From an uncultured delta proteobacterium (lineage in GTDB: Bacteria; Desulfobacterota; Syntrophia; Syntrophales; Smithellaceae), in NCBI GenBank assembly GCA_963710575.1, contig CAVQAL010000010.1:71533-135532 (forward strand): a stretch of DNA of 64,000 nt, given 5' to 3'. Made by a program: the position numbers and the translations under genes. The notes beneath the pieces were generated by a model. That model worked only from the letters and a program-made list of their open reading frames with translations. It was not told the DNA's origin and did not search any database. Position 1 is the stretch's first letter. Each line of letters opens with the position of its first letter. Shown one piece after another: positions 24,796 to 44,274 of this stretch.

Positions 24796-24828
24796 GGCAG
24801 GGCCGATTGGCTCTGCCTTTTTTATTTT
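24796..24828 (+). terminator. Rho-independent terminator
   Basis: GGCAGGGCC-gatt-GGCTCTGCC forms a 9-bp stem with one mismatch. It is followed by TTTTTTATTTT. Confidence 0.7.
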
Positions 24829-24938
24829 ATGAGATAACGATTATGGTTTGAGAGTGTATTAGCTTGCAGAATGAGAAAAACAAAATTACAGCAAGAAATG
24901 TTTGTTGTGCCCATGATCTTGTTGATGGTGCTACTATA

Positions 24939-26948: not shown

Positions 26949-28082
26949 GTGGAATCTCCATTAATAGAAATCTTGTCTCCTTTTTCTGTCTCTGCAATTT
27001 CAATAAACAGTACGGAATTTTCCCGGTGTGTGGAAATTGCCCGCCGGTATGACGTGGAGATGCTTTTCTATTCCAGACTGAAGAAATATTATGCCGGATC
27101 TAATAACTGTATCGATGACTATCTGAAACAAATTGAACATTCATACCTGAAGGCCGTTGCCGTATCAATACGGCAGGAGGTTGTGGAAAAAGAGATTGTT
27201 GCCGCGCTTAGCAAACAGAGCATCTCTGCCTGCATCATCAAGGGAAATGAGATTGCGCGTGTCCTTTATGAAGATCCCAATTGCCGCAGTTCGGCGGACA
27301 TTGATGTGCTCATTCGAACGTCAGATCTGATTGACGCGGATAAGATTCTTTGCGGCAAAGGTTTCACTCGTCAAGATACATTGCCCTTACCGTTTTGGAT
27401 AGGCCGGTTACATCACGCAGTGTATCGTAATGCAAAAAACGGTTGCTTGCTTGAGTTGCACTGGGATTTCGGCTACCCGTTATATTTTAATTTGACTCCC
27501 GATGAAATATGGAAGGAAGTGGCCGGAAGCGACGCGGAAGGATATTCCCTTACACCGGAGGCCATGGTTATCATGCTCTTTACTCATCATTTCAGGCACG
27601 GCTTCAGGGAATTCAAAATACTGGTGGACATCCTCTGGAGCTTCCATAGATATGACGGGATAATCAATTGGCAGGAATTTACAGGAAGGCTCAAGAAGAT
27701 AGGACTTATTAAAACAACCTTAATCATCCTCGATCAATTGGATTCCCTATGGTGCTTGAGTGACAGACGGCTTGAATCCTTTAAGATTCTCCAGAAACAG
27801 CTTGCATCTTTGTCCATCCATACACCGAAATTTTTACTGCGGTATTTCAAAATTGATATAGAAAAAGAATATAAAACAAGCGGTGCACTAGACATGGAAA
27901 TGTCGAAACTTGTTCTCGATAAAAAGTCAAAGATTCTGTATTCTTTCGTTAAAATATTTTTCCCGAGACCTCAGGACATCAGAGGCTTTTATCCTGACAC
28001 CAGCAAACTAACACTTCCGTTAAACTATCTACGTTTTATCTGCTGGCGTGTAAAGCAATCGACTTGTTTTAAAAAGAAGTAA
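26949..28082 (+). CDS. Uncharacterised nucleotidyltransferase-fold protein (PF14907/NTP_transf_5-like)
   Basis: The segment CRSSADIDVLIRTSDLIDADKILCGKGF, a later HHAVYRN...LELHWDF, and the ~380 aa size are typical of the family found next to PqqD/HprK-like genes in peptide-modification clusters. The assignment is from memory of the family, not from an HMM. Confidence 0.6.
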   Translation: MESPLIEILSPFSVSAISINSTEFSRCVEIARRYDVEMLFYSRLKKYYAGSNNCIDDYLKQIEHSYLKAVAVSIRQEVVEKEIVAALSKQSISACIIKGNEIARVLYEDPNCRSSADIDVLIRTSDLIDADKILCGKGFTRQDTLPLPFWIGRLHHAVYRNAKNGCLLELHWDFGYPLYFNLTPDEIWKEVAGSDAEGYSLTPEAMVIMLFTHHFRHGFREFKILVDILWSFHRYDGIINWQEFTGRLKKIGLIKTTLIILDQLDSLWCLSDRRLESFKILQKQLASLSIHTPKFLLRYFKIDIEKEYKTSGALDMEMSKLVLDKKSKILYSFVKIFFPRPQDIRGFYPDTSKLTLPLNYLRFICWRVKQSTCFKKK

Positions 28083-28123: not shown

Positions 28124-29941
28124 TTAACGGTAATGTTGTGCCTGTATTTCGTAAAGGTGGGCGTACTGACCGCCCAGTTGAATCAATTCTTCATGGCTGC
28201 CACTCTCCACGATCCGTCCTTCCTTAAGAACGCAGATTAAATCAGCCATACGGACGGTGGAAAAGCGGTGGCTGATAATCAGGGCGGAACGGCCGTTGAG
28301 CAATGTGCGAAAGGCATGAAAAACCTCATGTTCCATACGGGCGCTCATAGAGCTGGTGGGCTCGTCCAAGATAATCAACTGGGCTTCTCTTAGAAATGCC
28401 CTGGCCAGCGCCACCTTCTGCCATTCGCCGATGCTGAGTTCTACACCTCCGTCAAATTGATTCCCCAAGACCGTTTCATACCCATGCGGCAGATTGCTGA
28501 TAGTTCCGTCAGCCCCTGCCTGTTGCGCAGCAAAGCAGATACGGTCGTCGTCGGGACTAATGCTCACGTCTCCGATCCAGATGTTTTCCCGTACTGTGAG
28601 CGGGTAATGTATATAATCCTGAAAGATCATGGTAATTTCCCGGCGTAGTGCTTGTGTGTCAAAATCACGGAAATCTATGCTGTCCATGGTGATCCGCCCG
28701 CCCGCAGGATCGTAGAGACGGCACAGCAGCTTGGCCAGCGTCGTCTTGCCTGCGCCATTATCGCCTACGAGAGCAACAACCTCTCCGGGACGGATTGTCA
28801 GCTCGATGTCGTGAAGAACCTCGCTACTCGCGGCGGGATACCGGAAAGAAACATGCTCCAGCGCAATGCCCACCTGCATGGGCCGGGGAACATCCGCACA
28901 ATGCGCAGGTAAGGCTGTCTGTGGCTTCAGATCCAAAAAATCATAGAAATGATTCAAAAACATACTGTCTTCATATAGACCGGCTAGTCCTCCCATGATT
29001 TCCTGCAAGTAACCTTGCGCCCGTTGAAAGGCCTGAAAATACATTACCATGTCGCCTAAAGTCATAAACCCTCGTATCGTCCGTGAGGCGATAAAGGCAA
29101 ACATACCGAAAAGCGCCATGATAGCTCCGGCTTGGGCAATCAGATCGAAAGCAGAGCGGCTTTTTACAAGTCGGAGTTGTTCCCTGCGGAGCATTTCTCG
29201 TAGGTCCCGGTACCGCCTCCGGAAGAGGTTGCCCAAATCAAACAGTCGTACTTCTTTGGCGTGGAGCTCGCCCGTTAACATCCAGTGATAGTAGTAAGTC
29301 CGCCGTTCCGTCTCTGTGCGGCTGGATTGCCATTTATAAAGACGATCGGCATGACGGATCTTAACTATTATGCCGGGTAAAACAGCGATGAATAAGACCG
29401 CGGCAACAGCCCAGTGCAGATAAAATAGGAGTCCCGCCAATGCTAGCAGGGAGATGCCGTTTTGGCTAAACTGCGTCAGGGCCTGGACTATATGGTTAGG
29501 CCGGTAGGGGGCCTCTTGCTGAGCCCTGTGGAGTGTGTCGTAGTAGCTTGGATTTTCGTAATAGACTAGATCCACTGCCGCCGATTTACGGTGAATCACA
29601 TCCGTGACGTGATCGGTAACCAACTGGCTCTGGTGTTCCCGGACGACGTCGGCCAGAGCACGGCATCCGGCAGCCAGGAGAGCCACCAGACCTGTCAGAC
29701 CGATCAATAAAAGGACATGATGCAGGGTGGCCGCTTTATTTGGGGCGCTTATTCCCGCAGTAACGGTATCCACAATCAGCTTGATCAGGTAGAGGGGCAG
29801 CAAAGGCAGAAACGCCTGTATCGCTATGAGTCCCAAACCCGCTGTCGTCCATACCCGGGCACTATCCCAGACCAGAACAAGGGCGCGGTGCAATTGCATC
29901 AGTCCACGGATTTTCTGAAAATAACTAACTTTCAAGACCAC
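28124..29941 (-). CDS. ABC exporter, fused permease + ATPase (MsbA/ABCB type)
   Basis: Six TM helices precede the NBD, with Walker A GDNGAGKTT, signature LSIGEWQ and Walker B LIILDEPTS. There is no N-terminal C39 peptidase domain. The GTG start lies 6 nt after the upstream rSAM stop. Confidence 0.88.
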   Translation of the reverse strand: MVLKVSYFQKIRGLMQLHRALVLVWDSARVWTTAGLGLIAIQAFLPLLPLYLIKLIVDTVTAGISAPNKAATLHHVLLLIGLTGLVALLAAGCRALADVVREHQSQLVTDHVTDVIHRKSAAVDLVYYENPSYYDTLHRAQQEAPYRPNHIVQALTQFSQNGISLLALAGLLFYLHWAVAAVLFIAVLPGIIVKIRHADRLYKWQSSRTETERRTYYYHWMLTGELHAKEVRLFDLGNLFRRRYRDLREMLRREQLRLVKSRSAFDLIAQAGAIMALFGMFAFIASRTIRGFMTLGDMVMYFQAFQRAQGYLQEIMGGLAGLYEDSMFLNHFYDFLDLKPQTALPAHCADVPRPMQVGIALEHVSFRYPAASSEVLHDIELTIRPGEVVALVGDNGAGKTTLAKLLCRLYDPAGGRITMDSIDFRDFDTQALRREITMIFQDYIHYPLTVRENIWIGDVSISPDDDRICFAAQQAGADGTISNLPHGYETVLGNQFDGGVELSIGEWQKVALARAFLREAQLIILDEPTSSMSARMEHEVFHAFRTLLNGRSALIISHRFSTVRMADLICVLKEGRIVESGSHEELIQLGGQYAHLYEIQAQHYR

Positions 29942-29947
29942 ACCCGT

Positions 29948-31081
29948 TTATCTCTCTAAATTAATCGGGAGCAATTCCGTCCCCTTCTTAATATTTTCCG
30001 CCCTTCTGTGAGCCACTTTGCAGAAATAAGGCGTTGAACCATCCAACATGCCCGTTTCCAAATGTGCATGGGCGGGACACCACAGGCATAGATTCACCAG
30101 CGCGCATTTTCGGCATGATTCAAGAAATTCCTTGCGTTTAGAGCGTAAATCCCGGACGCGGGGAACTAAGTTTTTCCATGCGTCCGCCAGTGTTCCCTTG
30201 CGCAAATCATAAGTTGTTCCGTCCGCCCACAAAGAAGAACACAGGCGGAAACGGCCATCGTGACTTATAGTGAAGCTGCCGTTTCCCGCGCCGCAATGGA
30301 AAAGGTGGTCGCAGCCGTAATGGGTAAATTCCTCGTTAATCAGCGTATCGCATTCCTTCCGCATGGCGTTGATGCGCTGGTCATCGCTGTTTTCCAGCGA
30401 CACGATTTGTTCCGGCGTCAAACGCTGGACACGGATTTCCTCATTGCGTTTTTGATTGCCGTCGAAGCGCAGGTGCAGTTGCGGGTCGAAACGGTAATAG
30501 TCCTTCGTCCTGGAGCGGCAAAAATCGGCAATGGCCTGCTGTTCATGTAGATTTGCCTGAATCACCATCGCTTTTAAGCGGACCCGGACATCGTTTTTCA
30601 CCAGAGCATTAAGCCCGTTAATGAACCTTTCGAATGATTCGGGGCGGCGTGTCACTGCTCCATAAGTTTCTTTCGTCACGCCGTAAACAGTGATTTCGAT
30701 GTCCCGCGGCGGGTATTTCTTGAAAAGCGCGATATGCTCTTCGTTAACCAGTGTGGCGTTGGTAAAAACCGCGACAAGCAACCCCAGACGCTTCAATCCC
30801 ATGTATATCTCGGAAAAATCTTCCCGCAAAAGCGGCTCACCTCCGGTGATGAGACACCACATAGCGCCCATTCCCGCTGCCTCGCTGGCGATGGTCATAA
30901 TTTCCGCTACCGTAAGCTCACGGCTTTGTGCCTCTTGGTCTGCTGCCGGCAAGTTTATATAGCAGTGGGCGCAGTTCATGTTGCAACGTGCCGTGATCTC
31001 GATGTCAAAAGAGATGGGCGCCTGTTTGGCCATGAGTTTATCCCAGAGAGGGAATTGCTGTATTTCGATGGTATCGGTCAT
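29948..31081 (-). CDS. Radical SAM / SPASM-domain peptide-modifying enzyme (paralog 1)
   Basis: The CxxxCxxC cluster is ARCNMNCAHCY and the SAM-binding motif is GGEPLL. The SPASM-type Cys-rich tail reads CGAGNGSFTISHDGRFRLC...CRKCALVNLCLWCPA. Confidence 0.88.
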   Translation of the reverse strand: MTDTIEIQQFPLWDKLMAKQAPISFDIEITARCNMNCAHCYINLPAADQEAQSRELTVAEIMTIASEAAGMGAMWCLITGGEPLLREDFSEIYMGLKRLGLLVAVFTNATLVNEEHIALFKKYPPRDIEITVYGVTKETYGAVTRRPESFERFINGLNALVKNDVRVRLKAMVIQANLHEQQAIADFCRSRTKDYYRFDPQLHLRFDGNQKRNEEIRVQRLTPEQIVSLENSDDQRINAMRKECDTLINEEFTHYGCDHLFHCGAGNGSFTISHDGRFRLCSSLWADGTTYDLRKGTLADAWKNLVPRVRDLRSKRKEFLESCRKCALVNLCLWCPAHAHLETGMLDGSTPYFCKVAHRRAENIKKGTELLPINLER

Positions 31082-31235: not shown

Positions 31236-31829
31236 TCATTGCCTGAAGCGCAGTTTGCCAAGCCAGCGGTAAACTGAAAATGATTGAAAGCTACGCAAGC
31301 CATAACTTGCCGCGCGCCGCGGCATAATCAAGAGCTTTTTCAAACACAAAAGCGCTTTGCCGCGATTAAGAATCGCGATGAGTTCCCCGGCTTTCCCGAT
31401 TCCCCGATGCGCTTCCATTCCCTGGCGTTCAACGCGGCAAACACGGCCTATAATATTTTCGGTTGCAACTACTCCGTCCGAATCCGGGCAATTATCTCCC
31501 CTGATAAGCCAACCGTCGTCTGTTCGTCCAATAATGCGATGGATGGCAAGTTTTCCGGTACTGGGTTTTTTAAAGGCGACAACATCTCCCAGCGACGGTT
31601 GCATTTCTTTTATAGGCGAAATCGTCAAGACATCTTTATCGCGAATGAAAGGCTGCATGCTGAATCCCCGCGCCGTCGTGCGTAAAGCCACGCCGCTTTC
31701 CATCATAGCAAGAAGCAACTCAAGTTGTCCCAGGTCGGATAGGCTTAACTCTCCGCCTTGAAAAACGTATTGTGAATCCGATATGCCTGATGATGAAATA
31801 TTGTTAGAGTAATTCATCTCGCTCGACAT
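31236..31829 (-). CDS. S26B (SipW/Sec11-like) or S24-type serine peptidase, candidate leader peptidase
   Basis: The nucleophile motif is GFSMQP. It is followed by AIHRIIG...IRGDNCPDSD, which resembles the Ser/His-type signal peptidase motifs (HR...GDN). No TM anchor is obvious. Confidence 0.6.
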   Translation of the reverse strand: MSSEMNYSNNISSSGISDSQYVFQGGELSLSDLGQLELLLAMMESGVALRTTARGFSMQPFIRDKDVLTISPIKEMQPSLGDVVAFKKPSTGKLAIHRIIGRTDDGWLIRGDNCPDSDGVVATENIIGRVCRVERQGMEAHRGIGKAGELIAILNRGKALLCLKKLLIMPRRAASYGLRSFQSFSVYRWLGKLRFRQ

Positions 31830-31889: not shown

Positions 31890-32198
31890 TCAATCATTTT
31901 TAACTGCCAGAATTCCCCGTTTGACCATCTCGGCGGCAAACCCCAGCACATCGGCTTTTATTTCCTCGGCAGTTGAGGAAAATTCGTCCATCAATTCCAC
32001 CGAAATCTTCTTCAACGATCGATGCCCGTTGAGTTTTTTCCAGATTGCTTTGCCGGTTTCGTTGAGCGTATAGAGTTCATCGTCCGCATCGCCGATCCCG
32101 GCAACCAGCGGCACAATGATCATGTCTCCTTCAATTTCCCGCGCCACCACATCATCCGACGGCACGCAGATGGTATCCACTGTCACTTTTGTTTCCAT
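31890..32198 (-). CDS. PqqD-family RRE (peptide chaperone) protein
   Basis: The start is moved to METKV (AGAGG lies 9 nt upstream). The segment AREIEGDMIIVPL...ELYTLNETGKAIWKKLNGHRSLKKISVELMDEFS...IKADVLGFAAEMVKRGIL is the classic PqqD winged-helix pattern. Confidence 0.75.
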   Translation of the reverse strand: METKVTVDTICVPSDDVVAREIEGDMIIVPLVAGIGDADDELYTLNETGKAIWKKLNGHRSLKKISVELMDEFSSTAEEIKADVLGFAAEMVKRGILAVKND

Positions 32199-32339
32199 AA
32201 AAATCAACCTCTTTAAGTAATATTTCCCCCATGCAATTCGGGTGTGCTTTTGCTTTTTCAATCTGCTATAGTAAAGTACCTAAAATGACAAAAAAGTAAA
32301 AAGTCATGATCATTCCTTACTTGTTCTAGATACTTGGAA

Positions 32340-32558: not shown

Positions 32559-33347
32559 TTATGTCTGCCGTTTCTGAAGAAGCGCCTCACCGCGCCCAGG
32601 AATATTGTTGGGAATATGCAGCCAAACCACATCAAATCCGCCTGCGGCGAATTCTGCCCGCAGATCACTTTCCGACGAAAAAGTGTGGATAAACTCAACA
32701 TTGCCCCACAACATATCGCCGCGCTCATACGAACGGTTGCCCATTGTGAGCCAGGTGATTATTTGGCATAAGAATGCACCTTTGGAAGAAAATTGCTGGC
32801 GTGTGTCCCATTGGAATTGGCAGGCTAAATAGCCGCCCGGTTTTAGTGCGCGGCACGCGTGCCGGAGCATTTGCACGCGGCGGGCACGAGAGGGTAAACA
32901 TGAATACATCCCGGCAAAGATCCAGACGACATCATATGCTTCGGTGGGCACGTCAAGGGCGGCAATATCCTGCACGAGCCCTTTGATTTGCACGTTGTAG
33001 CGGGCGGCATTGGCTATAGCGCCTTCAACCATCTCCGGAATAAAATCTACGCCGGTTACATCAAATCCCATTCGGGCAAAGGAAATGGCTTCCCTTCCTC
33101 CTCCCACACCAAGCAACAATAGTTGCCCTGTTCTGGGTGGAAGGCGTTCCAACAGTTGCAACTCTTCGGGATGGAGTCCTTCCGCGACAACATCATCTCT
33201 GTTCCAACCTTCTATGCTCCTTAGCTTTGCATAATGCTGACGGCTGAACTCTACCAACTCGTCGGAAGTCATAACCATCACAGCTGATTTCTGGATGAAA
33301 GCACCCAGGCGAATCAATCCGCGCGCCAGCGCGATATGCAATTTCAT
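32559..33347 (-). CDS. Class I SAM-dependent methyltransferase
   Basis: Motif I is LLLLGVGGGREAI, with the acidic post-I FDVTGVDF. GAGAGGA precedes the ATG. Confidence 0.75.
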   Translation of the reverse strand: MKLHIALARGLIRLGAFIQKSAVMVMTSDELVEFSRQHYAKLRSIEGWNRDDVVAEGLHPEELQLLERLPPRTGQLLLLGVGGGREAISFARMGFDVTGVDFIPEMVEGAIANAARYNVQIKGLVQDIAALDVPTEAYDVVWIFAGMYSCLPSRARRVQMLRHACRALKPGGYLACQFQWDTRQQFSSKGAFLCQIITWLTMGNRSYERGDMLWGNVEFIHTFSSESDLRAEFAAGGFDVVWLHIPNNIPGRGEALLQKRQT

Positions 33348-33502
33348 CGAATATTCCTCTCACTATATGCAGCCACCATCTTGCGCTTCACCAGCTCGCC
33401 CACCAGATTGTTCACATCATGCGTAATGCCAGTTGCTGACGCGCTGTACCCAGCAGCGAGGCCGGCGATATGGCGCAAGAAATGTGTTCCAGTCAACGGC
33501 AT
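33344..33502 (-). CDS. Unannotated 52-codon ORF coupled to the methyltransferase gene
   Basis: The translation is MPLTGTHFLRHIAGLAAGYSASATGITHDVNNLVGELVKRKMVAAYSERNIR. Its TGA overlaps the methyltransferase ATG (ATGA), and its GC-rich, coding-like composition contrasts with the AT-rich 33520-33833. The SD is weak and I recognise no family. Confidence 0.3.
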   Translation of the reverse strand: MPLTGTHFLRHIAGLAAGYSASATGITHDVNNLVGELVKRKMVAAYSERNIR

Positions 33503-33833: not shown

Positions 33834-34010
33834 TTATGAGGTTACATTTGTATTGCAAAAGGTACCACACCCGGCGGTTGTACCACAATTGTTGTGGTGC
33901 GTGCCGGTTGCTCCGGCTGCTGTTCCTTTGCAAGTTGTCAAAACTTGTTCTTGGCTGTTTGTTTTAACAAGTACTGTAATTTTGGGCTTTGTCCACATAA
34001 GTTTTTTCAT
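33834..34010 (-). CDS. RiPP precursor peptide (58 aa), unannotated in ORF track
   Basis: AAGGAGGG lies 8 nt upstream of the ATG. The translation is MKKLMWTKPKITVLVKTNSQEQVLTTCKGTAAGATGTHHNNCGTTAGCGTFCNTNVTS. It sits in the middle of the rSAM/PqqD operon and has its own promoter-like element. Confidence 0.7.
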   Translation of the reverse strand: MKKLMWTKPKITVLVKTNSQEQVLTTCKGTAAGATGTHHNNCGTTAGCGTFCNTNVTS

Positions 34011-34033: not shown

Positions 34034-34062
34034 AGGATATGTAATAGTTGATTGTATGTCAA
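34034..34062 (-). promoter_or_regulatory. Sigma70-type promoter directly upstream of the precursor gene
   Basis: The minus strand reads TTGACA-N17-TATCCT and ends about 24 nt before the ATG. Confidence 0.5.
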
Positions 34063-34175: not shown

Positions 34176-35387
34176 TTACCCTTTCACTCTTTCTTCCCAA
34201 TAAAGAACCTCCCACGCTTTTTCTCTATTCTTCAGCCAGCCCAAAGATCTGCCTTGGGCGTGGGCAACTTCACATAGATATTCAACCGGCGTATCCAGAG
34301 TCCCGTGCTCCGCCCAGGATTTTGCCGGACACTGTTCGCACAGCCCCTTAAGAAAACAGACAGCGCAACGGCGCAGGTAGTCGGGATTGGTAGCTTTGAT
34401 GGTCTTAAGATTTTTGAAAAAATCAAGGGCTTCAGATAACATATTATGCTTCTGATATACCGGTTCATTTTCGGGATTGCTTTGGTGGCTTTCGCCCCCT
34501 CGCAATAACAAATTCCGCAGAAGATTGAAGGACAACTCCGGCGCGCGCACGCCCATGCAGAGATGAGCAAATCCATAGGCATCAATACACATGCCGTTAC
34601 CAGCTCCGCATCGGAAAAGTGCGTCGCCCGGCGGTCCCATGAATTTTCCCGCAAATTCTTTCATAGCCTTACGATATTTTGCCGCATCCCTCATCAATAT
34701 AGCCACGCCTTCTTGGGGTGAAAGACGAAGTGACGCTATCAAAGTATTCTTTTTCTCATTGTCTCGTCGATTGCGCAGATCTAAGAACAGGGAATAGCTC
34801 GGGCGTTCGTCCATCCAGGGGATTGTGTTTGCCCATGCTTCAAATTCATTCATCTCGGCTTTGTTGGGTGGCAAAATGGCGCTTTTGACGACAAAAGGAA
34901 TCTTGCGATCGAATAGCAAATCCACGCCCCGCTTGAATTGGGCAAACGAACCTGGCATGCGCGAGACCGCCTCATACGATTCCTTTCGCATGCCGTAAAC
35001 GGTGATTTCCATGAACACGAGCGGCGGAATGTGTACTAAAAGATCCGCCAATTGCGGCGTAATCAGGCGGGCGTTAGTGAAGATGAGGACTTTCAGACCC
35101 AATCGGCGGGCGAAAAGATATAGATCCTCGAAGTCAGGCCGCAAAAGCGGTTCGCCGCCGGTGAAGCGCACTTGCAGGCAACCCAGATCCGCGGCCTCAG
35201 TAAGAATGCTTTTTACCTGTCCGGTCGTCATCTCGCGTGCTTTGGCCGCGCGGTCATTGGCCGGCAGATTAATACAACAATGGATGCAGTCGTTATCACA
35301 CCGCTCGGTAAGTTCAATATCCAGAGATCCTAAGCGTGAGGCAATCTTTTTTTCCGAGTTTTTCACAAGTTGAACAAATTCAGACAT
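34176..35387 (-). CDS. Radical SAM / SPASM-domain peptide-modifying enzyme (paralog 2)
   Basis: The start is moved to MSEFVQL (35387), because the longer track ORF would overlap the upstream gene by 115 nt. The cluster is ERCDNDCIHCC, with GGEPLL. The SPASM tail reads CGAGNGMCIDAYGFAHLC...CAVCFLKGLCEQCPA. Confidence 0.88.
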   Translation of the reverse strand: MSEFVQLVKNSEKKIASRLGSLDIELTERCDNDCIHCCINLPANDRAAKAREMTTGQVKSILTEAADLGCLQVRFTGGEPLLRPDFEDLYLFARRLGLKVLIFTNARLITPQLADLLVHIPPLVFMEITVYGMRKESYEAVSRMPGSFAQFKRGVDLLFDRKIPFVVKSAILPPNKAEMNEFEAWANTIPWMDERPSYSLFLDLRNRRDNEKKNTLIASLRLSPQEGVAILMRDAAKYRKAMKEFAGKFMGPPGDALFRCGAGNGMCIDAYGFAHLCMGVRAPELSFNLLRNLLLRGGESHQSNPENEPVYQKHNMLSEALDFFKNLKTIKATNPDYLRRCAVCFLKGLCEQCPAKSWAEHGTLDTPVEYLCEVAHAQGRSLGWLKNREKAWEVLYWEERVKG

Positions 35388-35410
35388 GGCTTGATATAAC
35401 CTTAGTATCT

Positions 35411-37474
35411 CTATTCTATCTTTAACAACTCTTCGACAATCGCGCCTGATTTGTCGAAGCGCATGGTATAGCAGGGGATCTCTTGGACTATGCGCTCCAG
35501 AAGGTCCAACTCCTTTTGCCACCATTCGGCAGTAACCATGGGGCGGATAAGCGTGGCCAAAAGATTATGCCAAATCTTTTTGCGGTCGGTCAAAGCCTCA
35601 ATTTTATTTAACCTATCCTGCTTTAAAAACAAGATAGCGCAAAGAGGCGCCGAAGACGGCGATACATCGGCGGTAGTGCCGTGGCTCCATGTGCCGTGGA
35701 CAAGCCATTGACCATTACCATTTCTTTTTCCCCCTTTCACTCGGGCGGAAGTTGGCTTTTGCCCTGTCGTCTTGTCGGGCCAGTAGCGCAAGATATTGCG
35801 GTCGTCGCACAGAATTTCCAGCGAAATTCTATCTTTGCGATTTTCCGCTTTGAGCAATTCCATCGTCGTGGATTTGCCGGCTTCGGAATGGCCGACAAAG
35901 ACCAGTCCCTTGCCGTTGACAATAGCCGCCGCCGAATGCACAAGGATTGCGTCGCGGTCGGCAAGCAGAGGCCCCAGCCAGATCTGATCCGTCGGGAAGT
36001 GAGAAAGCGATTGCCAGCCGTCGGTGAGAATGCGGTCGATTTCGCCAGGCTCGCTGTAAATTGTGCCACGGACATGGTCGGCGCTGAAAACGGCCAGACG
36101 GTGATGGAAGTCATCTCCTTTTGTGTGCGGGATGATACGATAGAACCAGGCACCGTTATTGTTGCGGGAAATTGCCCAAGGCGGATTGTGGAAGAGTTCT
36201 TTGCCCAAACTCTTTCCCTCCAAATCCGGCAACTCGAAGTAGTGGCGAAACTCTACATTGTCTTTGCCGGGGCCTTCCACAGAAAATACCATCAGTTCAT
36301 CCTTGAATTTGATCTTGCTGAAATCCAGATCGCTTTCGATCCGGGCGGTAATGCCCGCAATCCGGAAATAGCGGCGATGATTCTTCTGCCAATCCTCCTT
36401 GCATTTGCGCTCTTCTTTTGCAATGGCGCATAAATCCGGGACGGGAGCGGAATAACGCTCCGTTTCCAGATACGCATAGCCAGGGCACCAACAGCAATCA
36501 TTTCGGCTTTCACAGGAGGCGCAATTTGTTCGCCATTCATTGTCACCTCGTATCTTGTCGGCACAGGAGGGAATGAAAGTATTCCAAGCCTCTGCAAAGG
36601 TTCCTCGTCGCAAATCATAGCGTAGGGCATTGTCCTTAATCAACTCGCACCACGACATCCGGCCGTAGGGGTCAATATGAAATATTCGCCGCTCGGCTAT
36701 ACACCGGGCAAACAGGCGGTCGTCACCTTCGTTAACAGCACCGCAAGCCGCTTCGATATGATTTTCCCCCTCCATTTCGCAGGCGCGTTTTCCCAATTCG
36801 GCTATCCGCTCATAATAGGTCAAATCGGGTTTATCTAGATTGATAACATCCGAGGGAGATAATCTCTGTTTCTGAATCTCTTTGTTCCTCTGCATTGAAC
36901 TATCGCAGGAAAGGCAAAGCCAAGATGCGCCGCAACGCCAATGTTTGCTCAGTGATTTCGCAAGGGCGATCATTTCCTCCCATTGATGATAATTGGCTCG
37001 CATGGGAACCAACTGGACAATGAAGCCGGCTCTCTCTTTCTTCAGGTAATCAAAGCCGTTCATCACCTTTTCGAATCCTCCGGGATTGCGGGTGACGTGA
37101 TCATAGACCTCGGCGGTCGCACCATAGAGAGCGATCATCTTTGTTCCTTTGCGGGTCAGTAAGCGGGCAATTTCCGGCGTTATAAGCGTCCCGTTGGTGT
37201 TGATGCTGTAGGAGACAGCCTTGCGGGTGAGGTAATCGAATATCTCAGGAAAATCAGGCCGCAGCAGCGGCTCGCCGCCGGAAATGTTCCAGTGGCGGCA
37301 ACCCATGGCGCGGGCGTCGTCAACGATACGCCGGATTTCGTCAAATGTTAGTTCGTTTTTCTTCTCCGGCGCGTTGATGGGCAGGGAAATCCAACAGTGA
37401 CGGCAGTTGTTGTTGCACCGGTAGGTCAAGTCAATGTGGCCTTCCAGGGGGAGACGAGGAATTTCGTTGATCAT
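35411..37474 (-). CDS. Radical SAM/SPASM enzyme fused to a C-terminal HprK-like P-loop kinase domain
   Basis: Residues 1-~360 carry YRCNNNCRHCW, GGEPLL and CASCESRNDCCWCPG (SPASM). Residues ~370-687 carry LVHSAAAIVNGKGLVFVGHSEAGKSTT, typical of HPr kinase-related proteins. It is one uninterrupted 687-codon frame. Confidence 0.8.
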   Translation of the reverse strand: MINEIPRLPLEGHIDLTYRCNNNCRHCWISLPINAPEKKNELTFDEIRRIVDDARAMGCRHWNISGGEPLLRPDFPEIFDYLTRKAVSYSINTNGTLITPEIARLLTRKGTKMIALYGATAEVYDHVTRNPGGFEKVMNGFDYLKKERAGFIVQLVPMRANYHQWEEMIALAKSLSKHWRCGASWLCLSCDSSMQRNKEIQKQRLSPSDVINLDKPDLTYYERIAELGKRACEMEGENHIEAACGAVNEGDDRLFARCIAERRIFHIDPYGRMSWCELIKDNALRYDLRRGTFAEAWNTFIPSCADKIRGDNEWRTNCASCESRNDCCWCPGYAYLETERYSAPVPDLCAIAKEERKCKEDWQKNHRRYFRIAGITARIESDLDFSKIKFKDELMVFSVEGPGKDNVEFRHYFELPDLEGKSLGKELFHNPPWAISRNNNGAWFYRIIPHTKGDDFHHRLAVFSADHVRGTIYSEPGEIDRILTDGWQSLSHFPTDQIWLGPLLADRDAILVHSAAAIVNGKGLVFVGHSEAGKSTTMELLKAENRKDRISLEILCDDRNILRYWPDKTTGQKPTSARVKGGKRNGNGQWLVHGTWSHGTTADVSPSSAPLCAILFLKQDRLNKIEALTDRKKIWHNLLATLIRPMVTAEWWQKELDLLERIVQEIPCYTMRFDKSGAIVEELLKIE

Positions 37475-37547: not shown

Positions 37548-37689
37548 CGTAGCCATTATATAATAGGCAAATTGTTTATATCAAAAGCACCAAAAATGCA
37601 ACTGATGTCGTCATCTTCGCTCAATAACATTTATTTATAAGGCAATAAAAGCCCCGTATCTTCAGCGTGATCATTAGTGCCACACACTC

Positions 37690-37910: not shown

Positions 37911-39173
37911 ATGACTAAACCTTTAAACGATGAGGTGAAAAATTTACGCGATATATCTTTATTATATGTAAATATACCTTTTTGCAAATCCAGATGCCAT
38001 TTTTGTTGTTTCTGCAGGACTTTTGGCCGTGATTTATTATCGTTAAAGAAGCTGAAAAGCTCATACATAAAAGCTGTCAAGTATGAACTTGCAGTAAAAA
38101 GTTTTTATTATACTGCAAAACACAGCGTCAATTTAAAGGCGATCAATTTCGGAGGCGGTACCCCTACCCTGCTTGCAGCTGACGAGTTGGGTGATCTCCT
38201 TTCCTCGATCGTAGAGCTTTTCGGTCAGAAAATCGAAGATATAAAAGATATTAGCATAGAAGCGACGCCCGATTCTTTAACGCTTTCTAAATTAAAACAG
38301 TTGAGGTGTGCAGGATTTAACAGGATAAGTATCGGGGCCCAGACATTCGAAAAGCGGATCTTAAATAAATTAAATCGTTCCCATTCCATCGAAGATTTTT
38401 ATAACGCTTACGACCGGGCGCGTTTGGCGGGGTTTAAGAATATCAATATTGATCTATTGTATGGTATTCCGACCCAAACCTTTGAAGATTTAAAAAACGA
38501 CCTTGAAACAATTGTCAAAATTGATCCGGAGCACATATCTCCATCTCCATTGATGGCGGTAAAGAGCGTTTTATTTGAGCCGGCAGATAAGAAGAAAAGT
38601 AAGGCTGTAATGAAAGAAAATAGATGGGCAGGCTATGTCCACGAGTTTTTAGAAGATAAGGGGTACCGGAATTATTTTCATAAGTATTTTTCGAAGATCG
38701 GACGGGAATCTATAACGGAATTGGTCTACTTTTATGATATTCCGTATATTGGCATAGGTCCTGGAGCTACAAGTTGGTTCGGGGATAACCCTTCTGACAT
38801 CAAATCTTATATCGATAAACCTGTTTCGGGTGAGATATTCACAAAGAATACGCCATACAATCCATTGAGAGTAATATTTTCGATGCTTCTTTTCCCGGAG
38901 GGTATTTATATACCGTATTTTAACGAACGATACGCGTGTGATTTAGAGGAGCTAGTGGGAAATCCACGACTAGGGCTAGATTTTTTTACGAAATTTGGAG
39001 ATTGTTCGCAGGAGACCATAAAAGAAGTTAGAACGCGGCAAAAGGAACTTGTAATGACGATAAAGAAATGGAAAGCGAAAGGCGCAATCGAAAAGAAAGG
39101 CGATTATCTTCGTATTACTCCGTCGGCACGATTCTCCAAAGAAATGTGGGGATTGTATATGACATCGATATAA
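37911..39173 (+). CDS. HemN/HemW-like radical SAM protein (class C rSAM methyltransferase-like)
   Basis: The cluster is YVNIPFCKSRCHFCCF, with GGGTPTLL and a HemN-like C-terminal domain. It is divergent from the rSAM operon. Confidence 0.8.
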   Translation: MTKPLNDEVKNLRDISLLYVNIPFCKSRCHFCCFCRTFGRDLLSLKKLKSSYIKAVKYELAVKSFYYTAKHSVNLKAINFGGGTPTLLAADELGDLLSSIVELFGQKIEDIKDISIEATPDSLTLSKLKQLRCAGFNRISIGAQTFEKRILNKLNRSHSIEDFYNAYDRARLAGFKNINIDLLYGIPTQTFEDLKNDLETIVKIDPEHISPSPLMAVKSVLFEPADKKKSKAVMKENRWAGYVHEFLEDKGYRNYFHKYFSKIGRESITELVYFYDIPYIGIGPGATSWFGDNPSDIKSYIDKPVSGEIFTKNTPYNPLRVIFSMLLFPEGIYIPYFNERYACDLEELVGNPRLGLDFFTKFGDCSQETIKEVRTRQKELVMTIKKWKAKGAIEKKGDYLRITPSARFSKEMWGLYMTSI

Positions 39174-39819: not shown

Positions 39820-41001
39820 ATGAAACATAAAACAATACTATTGAAATCCAAATCCTGCAGCTATCTGATGGTTTTGTTGCTGTTCATAACTGCTTTCCTG
39901 CTGGTTGGCTGTGAGAACCATTATGTGAAATGGAATCAAGAAACAAAAAGGTTCGAGTCGGTTGATTCCACGCGGGATGAGACCGGCACTGCAAAAGAAA
40001 TCAGTGACAAAAGAACAATCTCACCTTTGCAGAAACCAAGTGCAACTCAGGCGAAAAGTCCCATTGTTGAGATGAAAACAGTAACAATTCCCGCGCTGAA
40101 AGAGCCGCCACCGCCTGCTGATTACATTGTTGGCCCTAATGACTCTATCGTGGTCACCGTCATTAACGCCCCCGAATATTCTTCAGGTAGCAGCGGCGGC
40201 AGCAGTAATAATACACAGCGTGGCAGCCGAGTGGACGGCAACGGTAACATCCAAATGCCAACGCTGGGACTGGTAAAAGTTAACGGCATGACATTGTCCC
40301 AGATACGCGACCACATACAAGACCTTCTGAAGCAATATATTAAAAAGCCATCCGTGGTGGTTGAGATTACAGAATATAAAAGTTATCCTCTATATATTTT
40401 AGGACAATTTAAAAACACCGGCATTTTCTATATGGATCGTCCCTTTAATGTTCTTCAGGGACTTGCCCTGGGAGGCGGATACGATTCGTTTGCCAATCCG
40501 AAATCAGCGAGGATTATCCGGGACAAAAGAGTATTGCCTGTGGACGTTTACGAATTGCTGATGAATGCTGACCAGACACAGAACATCTGGCTGAAACCCG
40601 GCGATACAATCTTCATGCCGGACAATAAAAATCAAACGGTTTTTGTTTTCGGAGTGGGAAAACCCGGCGTGTCCATTACGCTGCCACCGTCCGGTCTTAA
40701 CCTTCTGCAGGCTATAGCCACCGCCGGTTTGGAGAAAGTCGGCTATCACGCCAGACGTGTTTATCTCATCCGTTCTCTCTCCCCCACTCGCGGGCAATTA
40801 ATAGTGGTTGATGTTGAAGCAATCATACAGAGCGGCGCTCGTCCCCTGCAACTTTGCGAAGGCGACGTCATTTACATACCCAAGAGCGGATTGACAAGCT
40901 GGAACGAAGCCATCACCGAAATGCTGCCCACACTTCAGGCTTTCGGCGCGATACTCACGCCCTTTGTTCAGCTTAAATACCTTTTCGACAAAAATAATTA
41001 A
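39820..41001 (+). CDS. Polysaccharide export outer-membrane lipoprotein (Wza/Poly_export + SLBB)
   Basis: The lipobox is LLVGC. The Poly_export motif region is YIVGPNDSIVVTV...VDGNGNIQMPTLGLVKVNGMT, and SLBB-like repeats follow. GGAGGG precedes the ATG. Confidence 0.8.
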   Translation: MKHKTILLKSKSCSYLMVLLLFITAFLLVGCENHYVKWNQETKRFESVDSTRDETGTAKEISDKRTISPLQKPSATQAKSPIVEMKTVTIPALKEPPPPADYIVGPNDSIVVTVINAPEYSSGSSGGSSNNTQRGSRVDGNGNIQMPTLGLVKVNGMTLSQIRDHIQDLLKQYIKKPSVVVEITEYKSYPLYILGQFKNTGIFYMDRPFNVLQGLALGGGYDSFANPKSARIIRDKRVLPVDVYELLMNADQTQNIWLKPGDTIFMPDNKNQTVFVFGVGKPGVSITLPPSGLNLLQAIATAGLEKVGYHARRVYLIRSLSPTRGQLIVVDVEAIIQSGARPLQLCEGDVIYIPKSGLTSWNEAITEMLPTLQAFGAILTPFVQLKYLFDKNN

Positions 41002-41035
41002 CAAAACTAATAACGAGCAACAACTAGAGGAATTT

Positions 41036-43432
41036 ATGAGCCCTACATCTGCCATGCCACCACCCAGATCAGTACGTCCCTGGGAAAAAGAAATCAATAT
41101 CTTGGGCTATATCACCGTTATCATGCGGCACTGGAAAACAATTGCCGTTATCACTTGCGTCGTCCTTGCAATAGTTGCCTTTAATACTTTCAGAATGAAA
41201 CCGATTTATGAAGCCTCTTCCACCATTTATATCAAGGAAGATAAGGGTAGCTTACTTCAAACAAACCAAAATTTTTGGTACGATCCAGTCACTACCATTA
41301 ACACAGAGATCGATATAATGAAATCGCGTTCCATGGCCGAGCAGGTTGTACAGCAGCAGCATCTCAACTGGCAGGTCTCGAAAAAATCTGATGGGCTCTC
41401 ATTTAAAATTCTTGAGTTCACATCCACCGCGAAAAACCCTGTTTACCAAATTAAAATGACTGCCGCGGATACATTCTCTGTGAAAGATGAAAACGGAGAA
41501 TTAGTCGGCAATGGCCAGACTGGAGTTATAATGAAGAAAAATGGCTTCAGCCTTCTCATAAACGATCTCAACGGTAAAATCGGCGACAGTTTCAATCTCA
41601 ATCTTGTGCCATTGGTAGATAAAGCTTTGGAGTTGCAGGGTGGTTTCAACGCAGCCCTATATGGTAAGCAGTCCAACATAATCCGGACTTCTTACACCAG
41701 CACAGATCCCGTTTTAGCGCGGGATATGGCAAATGCCTTTGTTCAGGCATATATAGAACATACAATTATATTAAAGACAGAAGAGACAAACAGAACCGTA
41801 TCTTTTATAGATGAACAAATTAAGAAATTGAACAAGGATCTGGATATTTCAGAAGAAAATCTCCAATCTTACAAGAGTAAAACCGGTACGATAAAGCTGG
41901 ACAACGAGGCCATATCACTGATTAACAAGATAACGGAAATGGAAAAGAGCCGCACCGATATCGCTCTTCAGAAACAGCAGTTGGAATTTGCCCGCAACGA
42001 TCTTAAAAAAGCAATAAAGACAGGGGCCATCTATTCTCCCGGTATTATGAGGAAGGATTCTCCTGTGGGAGGTCTCGCGACAAAATTATCCGAACTTGAA
42101 GTGCAGAAGAAGGCACTTCTGACCCAATATACCGAAGCCCATCAGGCTGTAAAAGCACTCCAGAATCAAATTGAAGAAGTGCAGAACAAGATGCTTGCTA
42201 TTTACGAGACGAGTTTGAATGATCTTGCCAAAGAGGGGCAGGGTATTTCCAGGCAGTTGTCCGTTTACGAGGGGCAAATGCATGAACTCCCCGATGTCGA
42301 GCGCAAACTTGCGCAACTCACCCGGGTATCAAAGGTCAGCGCCGACAACTACACTTTCCTGCTTCAGAAACACGAGGAAGCTCGTCTTGCAAGAGCTGCC
42401 ACTATCAGCAACATAAATATCATTGATCCGGCCATTACTCCCAAGGCGCCGATCAAACCGAACAAGCAAAAAAACATTCTCGTTGGCCTGCTAGTTGGCT
42501 TTGCGCTGGGAATATTCATTGCCTTTTTCATGGAATTCTTAGATGACACCATTAAGAATATCGATGAGGCAAAGCAATCAACAGGATTGCCAATATTAGC
42601 TGTCATTCCCTATATTGCCAGATTCAAATCAAAACAAAACGGAAGTGCGCCGGAAAAGAATAGACTGATAATAAAGAGTGAACCGCATTCCAGCGCTGCC
42701 GAGGCGTTTCGTTCATTGCGCACCAATCTGCATTATACCGCCATCAACAAACAAAAGAAGATAATGCTCTTCACAAGCACATTCCCTCATGAAGGTAAAA
42801 GCACCGTCACTTCCAATATCGCCATTGTTTTCTCCCAGACCGGAGCGCGGGTTCTTCTTATTGACTGCGATTTGCGCCGCTCATCCATACACGAAAAATT
42901 CGAGTTCAGCAAAACACCCGGACTCAGCGAAATTTTGGCCGGAGATGTCACTTTTGAAAAAGCAAAACGTACAAACGACGTTCACGGCCTTGACATTATA
43001 ACTGCCGGAACCACCCCACCCAATCCTTCGGATCTTCTTGGTTCGGAGGCTATGCAACAGCTTCTTATGACTCAACGGGAAAACTACGACTACATAATAA
43101 TAGATGCGCCGCCGGTTCTGGCCGTCACAGACGCTCCCGTTCTGGCAACTATTTCGGATATCGTCATTCTGGTTATGGAAGCAGGGCGAGTCCCTGTTAA
43201 AGCCGCCCAGCACATGAAAGATACCCTTGCCAGCTTACAAGTTACAATCGGAGGCATAGTAATGAATGACATGACCGGTAAAGGAGAACGCTACGAATAT
43301 TACAGTAGGGGATATGGATATTATTCCGATGAAAAACAAAAATCACACAGAAAAATTTACCGGTGGGAAAAATACATAAAATTCATCCCTGAAAAATGGC
43401 GGAGAGAATTAGAAAAATATCTGCCCCGATAA
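41036..43432 (+). CDS. Polysaccharide co-polymerase / tyrosine autokinase (Wzc/GumC-like)
   Basis: The start is moved to MSPTSA (RBS agagga). It has a Wzz-like N-domain with 2 TM helices and a coiled coil. The CpsD-like kinase has Walker A FPHEGKST and Walker B IIIDAPPV. The C-terminal Tyr cluster is YEYYSRGYGYYS. Confidence 0.85.
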   Translation: MSPTSAMPPPRSVRPWEKEINILGYITVIMRHWKTIAVITCVVLAIVAFNTFRMKPIYEASSTIYIKEDKGSLLQTNQNFWYDPVTTINTEIDIMKSRSMAEQVVQQQHLNWQVSKKSDGLSFKILEFTSTAKNPVYQIKMTAADTFSVKDENGELVGNGQTGVIMKKNGFSLLINDLNGKIGDSFNLNLVPLVDKALELQGGFNAALYGKQSNIIRTSYTSTDPVLARDMANAFVQAYIEHTIILKTEETNRTVSFIDEQIKKLNKDLDISEENLQSYKSKTGTIKLDNEAISLINKITEMEKSRTDIALQKQQLEFARNDLKKAIKTGAIYSPGIMRKDSPVGGLATKLSELEVQKKALLTQYTEAHQAVKALQNQIEEVQNKMLAIYETSLNDLAKEGQGISRQLSVYEGQMHELPDVERKLAQLTRVSKVSADNYTFLLQKHEEARLARAATISNINIIDPAITPKAPIKPNKQKNILVGLLVGFALGIFIAFFMEFLDDTIKNIDEAKQSTGLPILAVIPYIARFKSKQNGSAPEKNRLIIKSEPHSSAAEAFRSLRTNLHYTAINKQKKIMLFTSTFPHEGKSTVTSNIAIVFSQTGARVLLIDCDLRRSSIHEKFEFSKTPGLSEILAGDVTFEKAKRTNDVHGLDIITAGTTPPNPSDLLGSEAMQQLLMTQRENYDYIIIDAPPVLAVTDAPVLATISDIVILVMEAGRVPVKAAQHMKDTLASLQVTIGGIVMNDMTGKGERYEYYSRGYGYYSDEKQKSHRKIYRWEKYIKFIPEKWRRELEKYLPR

Positions 43433-43569
43433 AATAATTAAGATTGAAGGTGGATGCCGCGCCATCATTTATAAGGAAACATCTGAATCGAAAAAGTGGA
43501 TAGAACGAGTTGGTAGCTATCGGGACGGATACTGGAAATTAAATAATTGAACTTAAATCTTATTTTTTT

Positions 43570-44274
43570 ATGATCGATTTTCACTGTCACATTCTACCCG
43601 GTCTTGACGACGGCCCCGCCCACATAGACGAATCCGTGGCAATGGCGGCGGCCCTGCGGGATGCCGGTTTCAGAACAATCTACTGCACGCCCCATCTCAT
43701 CAAAGGATGCTTCGAGGCGGACAACCAGAACGTGCTGTCATCCGTGTCAACCTTGCAGACAAGGCTGAACGCGGAAAATATCGAACTTGAAATCCTACCG
43801 GGCCGTGAATATTACCTGGATGAATTTCTTGGCAATTATCTGAAAGATCCTCTGCCCCTTGGTAAAACACGTTATATAATGGTAGAAATTCCCAACAACA
43901 CACCCGCCAAATACGTTAAAGAAACCTTTTTTCGGATAAAATGCGGCGGGTTTATCCCGATGATTGCCCATCCTGAGCGATGCAGACTTTTTTCCGTGAT
44001 TCAAAAACAAACAACATCAAGGTTTTGGTTTTCCGGATCAAAACGTAAAACTTCAGATTCAAAAATAAAAGAACCTGCACTGATAGATTACCTGAAAGAC
44101 ATTGATTGCGCTTTTCAGGGCAACCTTGGCAGTTTTGATGGCTTGTACAGCTCGGAAGTACAGCAAACGGCGGACTATCTTAAGAAAAATAAAGTATACA
44201 CACATTTCGGCACCGACGCCCATTCCCTTCATGCCATCACCCTTTTGAATCTGTCCTCCGTTGGCGCGAAGTAG
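43570..44274 (+). CDS. PHP-family protein-tyrosine phosphatase (CpsB/YwqE-like)
   Basis: The N-terminus MIDFHCHILPGLDDGP, a later CTPH and IAHPERC are the metal-binding His motifs of CpsB. Confidence 0.8.
   Translation: MIDFHCHILPGLDDGPAHIDESVAMAAALRDAGFRTIYCTPHLIKGCFEADNQNVLSSVSTLQTRLNAENIELEILPGREYYLDEFLGNYLKDPLPLGKTRYIMVEIPNNTPAKYVKETFFRIKCGGFIPMIAHPERCRLFSVIQKQTTSRFWFSGSKRKTSDSKIKEPALIDYLKDIDCAFQGNLGSFDGLYSSEVQQTADYLKKNKVYTHFGTDAHSLHAITLLNLSSVGAK

Follow-up and report, generated by a model that had tools for sequence, protein, structure and literature searches.

The rSAM1-ScmC Fusion Gene

The DNA described here is a stretch of 64,000 nucleotides (the window) from an uncultured delta proteobacterium of the Smithellaceae (contig CAVQAL010000010.1, assembly GCA_963710575.1). 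Its central feature is a reverse-strand gene in which a radical S-adenosylmethionine (rSAM)/SPASM enzyme, rSAM1, is fused to a C-terminal domain assigned to the ScmC family, a relative of the kinase HprK. The gene belongs to a cassette for a peptide that is made on ribosomes and modified after translation (a RiPP), and its product may be a bifunctional maturase of that peptide. The parts of the fusion gene are listed below by position in the window and strand.

35411..37474 (-): fusion gene rSAM1-ScmC, 687 aa; open reading frame (ORF), with the exact protein called with PF04055 and PF27840 in another assembly
36395..37474 (-): rSAM/SPASM half, aa 1-360; NCBIfam rSAM/SPASM families at aa 15-353 (below cut-offs), invariant cysteines and fold
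37394-37417 (-): CX3CX2C motif, C20-x3-C24-x2-C27
36428-36703 (-): SPASM cysteines C258, C276, C318, C321, C327, C330 and C349
35414..36379 (-): ScmC domain, aa 366-687; PF27840, AlphaFold2 fold, Foldseek and hhalign
35864-35944 (-): His513 and Walker A, aa 511-537, quoted as LVHSAAAIVNGKGLVFVGHSEAGKSTT
35795-35812 (-): C-D-D-R-N, aa 556-560
35678-35698 (-): HGTWSHG, aa 593-599, specific to the ScmC family

The preliminary description of this locus had proposed one uninterrupted frame of 687 codons encoding two domains, with no stop or frameshift near 36370 to separate two genes. This has been confirmed. The gene is a single ORF from ATG to TAG on the minus strand, a strand that the preliminary description does not give, and the identical 687-aa product was called in an independent Logan assembly (L004). 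Four further 687-aa members of its 90% cluster, with identity >90%, come from separate JGI metagenomes. Pfam and NCBIfam matches and the AlphaFold model place both domains in the one polypeptide, with the boundary at aa 360-366 (nt ~36380-36395), near the 36370 of the preliminary description. In the full-length model (pLDDT 86.9, pTM 0.78), the arrangement of the two domains is confident. The last SPASM helix (346-366) continues into the first ScmC strand, with no disordered or flexible linker.

It is next to inconceivable that the long ORF is an artefact in which a misassembly or a lost stop codon has joined two genes. Some database entries do show the halves as separate genes, but these split versions, with two or three genes, are confined to long-read assemblies, where the DNA shows frameshifts inside the rSAM half and not at the domain junction. 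Frameshift-broken examples are found at L001 986-2996 and L005 5028-6993. The artefact explanation is already refuted by the independent assemblies, by the thousands of fused homologues and by the genome census described below.

The Radical SAM/SPASM Half

The N-terminal half had been described as a complete rSAM/SPASM module, and the two features that define this class, the CX3CX2C motif and the seven-cysteine SPASM extension, are both present in rSAM1. The Radical_SAM domain (PF04055) is matched in Pfam over aa 16-171 with an E-value of 7e-23 (82 bits against a cut-off of 29.5). The SPASM cysteines follow the pattern C258-x12-G-x4-C276, C318-x2-C321-x5-C327-x2-C330 and C349. In such enzymes, the seven cysteines (CX9-15GX4C ... 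CX2CX5CX2-3C ... C) hold two auxiliary 4Fe-4S clusters. Both the radical SAM and the seven SPASM cysteines are invariant among 54 full-length homologues. The Pfam SPASM model gives no score for the window protein; a relative (P0148) does score. The best NCBIfam matches are the mycofactocin maturase and AhbD; ScmF, ScmE and PqqE are also matched, all far below their cut-offs. The best fold matches of this half are SuiB, SkfB, BlsE, PqqE, MoaA and anSME.

The ScmC Half

The C-terminal half consists of an N-terminal beta-rich subdomain and a P-loop subdomain. Among the same 54 homologues, His513, G528-x4-G533-K534-S535-T536 and C556-D557-D558-R559-N560 are invariant, and the H-G-T-W-S-H-G motif (593-599) is invariant or nearly so. 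A search of a large protein collection with the C-terminal domain returned 1095 relatives, all of them previously annotated with PF27840, a family that the gene tables name ScmC. The precomputed annotation lists PF27840 for the exact window protein (P0270), marks it as “faint” for the same protein in L004 and gives it without that mark for more than 200 close homologues.

When aa 355-687 were searched alone, the matches were to HprK-related kinase B (E 0.0024) and ScmC (E 0.013), and covered only ~35 residues around the P-loop. There was no Pfam match in a model set without ScmC, and none to PF07475 or TIGR00679. A set of 65 family members was also compared with NCBIfam. The ScmC model matched 64 of them (best E 2e-12), as did HprK-related kinase B (best E 9e-9), while HPr(Ser) kinase/phosphatase matched 51 (E 6e-5 or higher) and HprK-related kinase A matched 32. 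In Pfam, Hpr_kinase_C matched 32 of the 65 with E-values of 4e-4 or higher. For the ScmC equivalog TIGR04249, whose cut-off is 125 bits, the score of the window domain is 14.8 bits, and even the best of the 65 relatives reaches no better than the E-value of 2e-12 given above. The window domain is thus a relative of the equivalog and not a member.

The AlphaFold2 model of the domain, built on 65 homologues, has a pLDDT of 91.3 and a pTM of 0.88. All 34 Foldseek matches to the Protein Data Bank (PDB) with E <= 1e-3 are phosphoenolpyruvate (PEP) carboxykinases or HPr kinase/phosphorylases. The top match, a PEP carboxykinase (E 7.5e-8), spans both subdomains. The HprK/P structures 1kkl, 1jb1, 2qmh, 1ko7, 1knx and 3tqf are matched with E-values of 4e-5 to 4e-3, the best being 1kkl (E 3.9e-5, TM-score 0.47 on the HprK catalytic domain). 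The PEP carboxykinase-like P-loop fold by which HprK is recognized is thus present in the ScmC domain.

Profile-profile comparison supports this relationship. When a diverse ScmC alignment was compared with a genuine HprK alignment, hhalign gave a probability of 80% and an E-value of 1.5e-5. It paired L-H-S-A-x5-G-x-G-L-x-F-V-G-H-S-x-A-G-K-S-T of ScmC with V-H-G-V-x5-G-x-G-V-L-I-x-G-x-S-G-x-G-K-S-E of HprK. This places the catalytic histidine (H513) and Walker A (G528...K534-S535) in register with those of HprK. D557-D558 lies outside the HprK DD columns of this alignment, and is presumably the counterpart of the HprK Asp-Asp pair. The HprK N-terminal domain PF02603 has no Pfam match in the fusion protein.

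Two genuine HPr(Ser) kinase/phosphatases (P0445 and P0458) carry a precomputed PF27840 match besides PF07475. This double annotation is independent evidence that the two families overlap, as judged from their sequences.

The C-terminal half is a member of the HprK/PEP carboxykinase fold group and is assigned to a family of its own, ScmC, distinct from HprK proper. The preliminary description had called the C-terminal 320 aa HprK-like. Profile searches did not show these residues to be unrelated to HprK, and the fold search, the hhalign result (E 1.5e-5) and the NCBIfam matches of the 65 homologues uphold the assignment.

Distribution and Architecture

A search with the full-length protein returned 1755 clusters at E <= 1e-50, which is a lower bound for clusters of the fusion protein. 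The best 120 of these are 598-801 aa in length, and in 117 of the 120 PF04055 occurs together with PF27840. Public databases name them simply “radical SAM protein” or “MoaA/NifB/PqqE/SkfB family radical SAM enzyme”. An exhaustive profile search of 1.8 billion representatives gave 210 clusters at E <= 1e-30. Approximately 20 of the top 150 are 617-679 aa long with ScmC at ~350-650, and an N-terminal Radical_SAM domain was present in 10/10 tested.

The ScmC profile identified 292 loci among GTDB species representatives, and the best 80 of these form the census on which the locus, cassette and neighbour counts given here are based. The fused ORF is intact in 60/80 loci, where it is ~650-760 aa long and has CX3CX2C upstream of ScmC. 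Truncated or frameshifted fusions account for 6/80 and free-standing ScmC for 11/80. The remaining 3/80 (L066, L074 and L078) were left unclassed as their ORFs run into contig ends. A search with the C-terminal domain alone had suggested that ScmC is free-standing as a rule. This was rejected because the full-length search and the census show a fused majority. The proteins of 400-540 aa behind that impression are contig-end truncations or frameshifted long-read calls, and frameshifts in long-read assemblies have produced many such spurious “SPASM tail + ScmC” database proteins.

Fused homologues number in the thousands (at least 1755 clusters), down to ~45% identity, and occur in many bacterial phyla and in archaea. 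The hosts include Smithella/Syntrophaceae (best match 83%) and Geobacter, as well as Chloroflexota, Acidobacteriota, Aminicenantes, Planctomycetota, Synergistota, Chlorobiaceae, Actinomycetota, Omnitrophota and a spirochaete. The 83% match points to a Smithella-like member of the Desulfobacterota as the probable source of the window. The archaeal hosts are Methanolinea, Methanospirillum, Methanoregula and other Methanomicrobiales. One Actinomycetes metagenome-assembled genome (MAG) encodes an 851-857-aa fusion with ~170 extra N-terminal residues before CX3CX2C (L049 8330-10900).

In a neighbour-joining tree of the ScmC domain, the free-standing forms are scattered among the fused ones. This tree is most simply read as descent from a fused ancestor in which the rSAM half was lost repeatedly. 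The preliminary description had presented the fusion as a departure from clusters in which HprK-like kinases are separate proteins. It is instead the majority architecture of the ScmC family, already recorded as PF04055 plus PF27840 in public Pfam annotation. The obligatory coupling of radical chemistry and phosphorylation that was drawn from the fusion is likewise not strict, as the free-standing forms in 11/80 loci are spread through the tree and accompany an otherwise identical cassette.

The Gene Cassette

The genes that accompany the fusion gene are as follows.

34176..35387 (-): rSAM2, radical SAM/SPASM-type maturase, 403 aa; Pfam and NCBIfam, start from the L004 gene call
33834..34010 (-): precursor peptide, 58 aa, MKKLMWTKPKITVLVKTNSQEQVLTTCK / GTAAGATGTHHNNCGTTAGCGTFCNTNVTS; ribosome-binding site, conserved leader and C-x5-S end
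32559..33347 (-): SAM-dependent methyltransferase, accessory; Pfam Methyltransf_25/11, in 6/80 related loci
31890..32261 (-): PqqD-family peptide chaperone (RiPP recognition element, RRE); Pfam PqqD E 1e-13, weak ScmD match, conserved
31236..31829 (-): S24/S26-type peptidase; NCBIfam signal peptidase I/NiSOD maturation protease and Pfam S24/S26, below cut-offs, conserved
29948..31081 (-): rSAM3, radical SAM/SPASM maturase, 377 aa; Pfam Radical_SAM and SPASM, conserved
28124..29941 (-): ATP-binding cassette (ABC) exporter, permease and ATPase fused; Pfam ABC_membrane and ABC_tran, conserved
26949..28082 (+): NTP_transf_5 nucleotidyltransferase, convergent with the exporter; Pfam PF14907 E 5e-34

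The start of rSAM2 lies 23 nt after the stop of the fusion gene, a position kept in nearly all loci. A 449-aa ORF at 34176-35525 that overlaps the fusion gene was rejected as an over-extension, as the independent gene call in L004 begins rSAM2 at 35387. The S24/S26-type peptidase is the likely leader peptidase. By tblastn against the 80 loci, the order rSAM1-ScmC, rSAM2, PqqD, peptidase, rSAM3 and exporter is found nearly everywhere, often with NTP_transf_5, and the precursor gene or genes follow rSAM2. The cassette is conserved across phyla, archaea included. Homologues of NTP_transf_5 adjoin it in at least 11-18 related loci, and also in L001 and L002.

Loci with a free-standing ScmC keep rSAM2 and rSAM3 but have no orthologue of rSAM1; their best “rSAM1” match by tblastn is rSAM3 itself, at ~33% identity. 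For this reason, rSAM1 appears to be an extra module that is seen only in fused form. The same loci led to the rejection of a model in which ScmC had fused with a neighbouring rSAM enzyme of the cassette.

The Precursor Peptides

The precursor gene has AGGAGG 8 nt before its ATG, and its 58-aa product matches no curated family in Pfam or NCBIfam. Relatives were found in other loci by tblastn. A search pattern confined to the leader, with no constraint on the core ([WFY]xxPx[LIVMF]xx[LIVM]x[RK]...[ED]x[LIVA][LIVM]xxCK), retrieved 93 ORFs in 55 loci. The shared leader reads W-x-K-P-E-L-x-V-L-V-R-x2-P-E-E-x-V-L-x2-C-K. The locus thus has a precursor with a conserved leader and a hypervariable core, along with a PqqD protein, an S24/S26 peptidase and an ABC exporter, as expected of a RiPP cassette. 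A 52-codon ORF at 33344-33502 (-), which contains no cysteine, was rejected as a precursor as it has no counterpart in related loci. This ORF shares 4 nt with the start of the methyltransferase gene, and the Logan assembly lists it as a gene.

Despite the variability of the cores, 92 of the 93 precursors terminate in Ser (86) or Thr (6), the exception being a Gln end in a frameshifted locus. The end C-x5-[ST] is present in 86/93, although Ser makes up only 13% of core residues. The preliminary description mentions neither the precursor gene nor its conserved C-terminal Ser, which provides the strongest case that the peptide is phosphorylated.

The cores of fused loci usually read C-x3-9-C-x2-3-C-x5-S, with three cysteines in 71/85 peptides, whereas in free-standing-ScmC loci 7/7 peptides have two. 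Counted per locus, 42 fused loci have at least three core cysteines and five have two or fewer; for standalone loci, these counts are 0 and 7 (Fisher p = 4.5e-6, with no correction for phylogeny). The core cysteine count tracks how many rSAM genes are present. In a Dehalococcoidia MAG, 12 precursor genes lie in tandem beside one set of maturases (L062 10977-18612), and one of the 12 encodes no core cysteine.

The fixed end of the precursors also bears on an alternative in which phosphorylation is transient. Here, ScmC would activate the C-terminal Ser for conversion to dehydroalanine, and the cysteine six residues upstream would add to it, forming a lanthionine-type ring, while the rSAM enzymes handle the other cysteines. 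Kinase-then-elimination is established chemistry in the class III-V lanthipeptides. The Cys-x5-Ser-COOH spacing (86/93) is shared by fused and standalone loci alike, and the total number of cysteines, counting that of the leader-end C-K with those of the core, exceeds that of the rSAM genes by one in both cassette types. Nonetheless, such a route is improbable: no lyase or cyclase homologue is present among the conserved cassette genes of the 80 loci, six of the precursors have Thr as their last residue, and the recurrent NTP_transf_5 neighbour better suits a phosphate that is retained and decorated.

Proposed Function

The fusion protein is proposed to be a bifunctional maturase of a ribosomally made, cysteine-rich peptide, with its kinase domain phosphorylating the C-terminal Ser. 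This proposal, which is built on analogy, stands at slightly better than even chances. The analogy is with lasso peptides, for which HPr-kinase homologues of the paeninodin type have been described that act on the linear precursor, phosphorylating its C-terminal Ser and requiring little else of the sequence (PMC8498205). In the case of pseudomycoidin, a nucleotidyltransferase then adds a hexose to the C-terminal phosphate (PMC8498205). The near-invariant Ser/Thr end of the precursors and the recurrence of NTP_transf_5 match this precedent, and so the ScmC domain is read as a kinase of the C-terminal Ser.

Under this scheme, PqqD would bind the leader and present the peptide. The three rSAM/SPASM enzymes would each install one Cys-derived crosslink, most likely a thioether as in sactipeptides and ranthipeptides. 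The ScmC domain would use ATP to phosphorylate the C-terminal Ser/Thr on its side chain, in the manner of the lasso-pathway HPr-kinase homologues. Where present, NTP_transf_5 could decorate the Ser/Thr phosphate. The S24/S26 peptidase would then remove the leader and the ABC transporter would export the product. Since rSAM1 and the third cysteine occur together, rSAM1 may be an add-on module for the extra cysteine located 2-3 residues upstream of the last one. The fusion would put the rSAM1 active site beside the ScmC domain that holds the C-terminal tail.

It is also conceivable, as a more tentative and on balance doubtful extension, that the products form an undescribed RiPP class. Its members would combine several radical-SAM cysteine crosslinks with a phosphorylated, possibly nucleotidylated or glycosylated, C-terminal Ser, and the fusion would serve as a molecular ruler, its kinase-like domain clamping the C-terminal Ser so that the fused radical SAM site modifies a cysteine at a fixed distance upstream. 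The gain or loss of rSAM1, which would only ever be fused, would then accompany the gain or loss of one cysteine in the C-x2-3-C-x5-S tail. If true, this class extends across anaerobic bacteria from many phyla and methanogenic archaea.

A number of observations weigh against the proposed peptide kinase. The scores to HprK-family models are below the family cut-offs everywhere, in the window domain and in the 65 relatives alike. PEP carboxykinases, whose substrates are small molecules, head the fold matches, and the TM-scores are modest (0.26-0.49). The HprK signature E-I-R-G-x-G-I is not recognisably aligned: hhalign stops before it, and ScmC has HGTWSHG. Profile and single-sequence searches of PDB sequences with the ScmC domain returned only Walker-A matches to ABC ATPases and never HprK, a failure that need not count against HprK homology as the fold search and the profile-profile comparison succeed. 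NTP_transf_5 lies beside the cassette in a minority of loci only. The correlation between cysteines and rSAM genes ignores phylogeny, and five fused loci have only two-Cys precursors within the DNA that was fetched. The C-x5-S spacing may instead reflect a ring, or the way in which the peptidase, the exporter or an rSAM enzyme recognizes the peptide. No paper on ScmC proteins was found in the literature.

The junction of the two halves invites another explanation, in which ScmC has no protein kinase activity. Acting as a docking or chaperone module that depends on nucleotide, it would grip the precursor tail and feed it to the rSAM sites, serving as a second recognition element besides PqqD. 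The junction is rigid with a confident inter-domain model (pTM 0.78), the beta-rich N-terminal subdomain has no assigned function, and the distance from the last cysteine to the C-terminus is fixed. No RRE domain of their own was found by Pfam or NCBIfam in any of the three rSAM proteins. However, the HprK-type residues (His, Walker A Lys/Ser and DD) are invariant over 54-65 homologues and pure binding needs none of them, although ATP-driven binding would still keep Walker A. This explanation is considered unlikely.

Genomic Surroundings

In the window, the cassette is flanked by exopolysaccharide genes. A PEP-CTERM protein and Wzi are encoded at 23992-26540 on one side, and Wza-like, Wzc-like, CpsB and UDP-GlcNAc 2-epimerase genes lie at 39820-44274 on the other. 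In 11/80 related loci, from several phyla, Wzc-like genes occur within 10 kb of the cassette. This recurrent nearness to exopolysaccharide genes hints that the system may act in the cell envelope.

A further alternative would tie the cassette to the polysaccharide locus, with ScmC phosphorylating a non-peptide substrate such as a sugar, a lipid-linked intermediate or an exopolysaccharide intermediate. It draws on the PEP carboxykinases among the best fold matches, on the position of the window cassette between the Wzi/PEP-CTERM and Wza/Wzc/CpsB genes, and on the Wzc-like neighbours of the 11 loci. It is nonetheless very unlikely. ScmC is linked to PqqD, rSAM, peptidase, exporter and precursor genes in nearly every locus, whatever flanks them, and most loci have no exopolysaccharide genes within 10 kb. 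Moreover, the conserved C-terminal Ser/Thr of the precursor is an obvious peptide substrate.

A HemN/HemW-like radical SAM gene at 37911-39173 (+) is divergent from the fusion gene. In an Acidobacteriota MAG (L079 17174-18433), an 80%-identical copy lies inside the cassette, between the peptidase and rSAM3 genes; the other cassette proteins of that locus show 44-62% identity. Because its identity is so far above theirs, the HemN/HemW-like gene may be a mobile accessory tailoring gene.

Two promoter-like matches were recorded, and such sigma-70-like matches are no more numerous than expected from shuffling.

37555..37584 (-): sigma-70-like promoter match upstream of the fusion gene; 11/12 hexamer matches, consensus only, weak
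34034..34062 (-): sigma-70-like hexamer pair upstream of the precursor gene; 10/12 hexamer matches

The second of these hints at a possible separate promoter for the precursor.

Significance

The two-domain architecture is already visible in public Pfam annotation, and nothing sets the window gene apart within its large family. It represents a variant of two known kinds, the rSAM RiPP cassette and the HprK-like kinase of RiPP clusters, and is neither an artefact nor a rarity. A literature search found no paper on ScmC, on the rSAM-ScmC fusion or on its precursor family. HprK-like kinases have been proven as RiPP tailoring enzymes in lasso peptides only, and ScmC and the SynChlorMet-type cassettes have so far been database entries without a substrate, product or function. 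The public label “radical SAM protein” leaves the kinase-like half invisible to genome miners.

The present locus provides a concrete system, with precursors that share a near-invariant C-x5-Ser end, three rSAM paralogues and a kinase-like domain joined to one of them. With a spread of at least 292 species-representative genomes, thousands of metagenomic clusters and the Methanomicrobiales, a product or function would fill a sizeable gap in the peptide chemistry of anaerobes and archaea.

Comparison with Known Systems

The SynChlorMet (SCM) cassette is bioinformatically defined and uncharacterised. It comprises ScmC (TIGR04249), the PqqD-like ScmD (TIGR04248) and the rSAM/SPASM proteins ScmE and ScmF (TIGR04250/04251). 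It has in common with the window cassette an ScmC-type protein, a PqqD homologue and PqqE-like rSAM/SPASM proteins, and ScmC, ScmD, ScmE and ScmF are among the best NCBIfam matches of the corresponding window proteins. The scores reach 15 bits against a cut-off of 125 for ScmC, and 93 and 92 bits against 400 for ScmE and ScmF. All of these are far below the SCM equivalog cut-offs, and the window cassette is a distinct sister of the SCM cassette. It differs from SCM by a third rSAM/SPASM enzyme fused to ScmC, an S24/S26 peptidase, an ABC exporter and, often, NTP_transf_5. The SCM cassette is not known to have an identified precursor, whereas a precursor family has been identified for the window-type cassette.

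Lasso peptide clusters likewise contain an HprK-lineage P-loop kinase in a RiPP cluster, as in those with paeninodin-type kinases or in that of pseudomycoidin with PsmK and PsmN. In both systems, the precursors share little apart from their C-terminal Ser, and the kinase is accompanied by a nucleotidyltransferase gene (PMC8498205). The lasso clusters rely on a lasso cyclase and B protease, whereas the window cassette has predicted rSAM/SPASM crosslinking and a putative kinase. The lasso kinases are described as separate gene products (PMC8498205) while ScmC is fused to an rSAM enzyme, a comparison based on the published descriptions.

HprK/P (PF07475, TIGR00679) and the HprK-related kinases A and B (TIGR04352, TIGR04355) have the P-loop fold in common with the ScmC domain. 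As in HprK, the ScmC domain has His-x7-G-x-G-x4-G-x-S-x2-G-K-S in register and an acidic DD pair after the next strand. Unlike HprK, it is without PF02603 and its sequence does not align with E-I-R-G-x-G-I, and in the context of a peptide cassette its substrate cannot be HPr.

The RiPP rSAM/SPASM maturases, including SuiB, SkfB, PqqE, MftC and the sactipeptide and ranthipeptide synthases, share the CX3CX2C motif and seven-Cys SPASM extension with rSAM1. Like them, rSAM1 has a discrete PqqD partner and a Cys-rich predicted substrate. Unlike them, it reaches no curated cut-off, has no fused RRE, carries a kinase-like C-terminal domain of 320 aa and is one of three paralogous rSAM enzymes for a single short peptide. 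The closest characterised enzymes are the lasso-peptide HprK homologues for the C-terminal half and maturases of the SuiB, SkfB, PqqE and MftC type for the N-terminal half.

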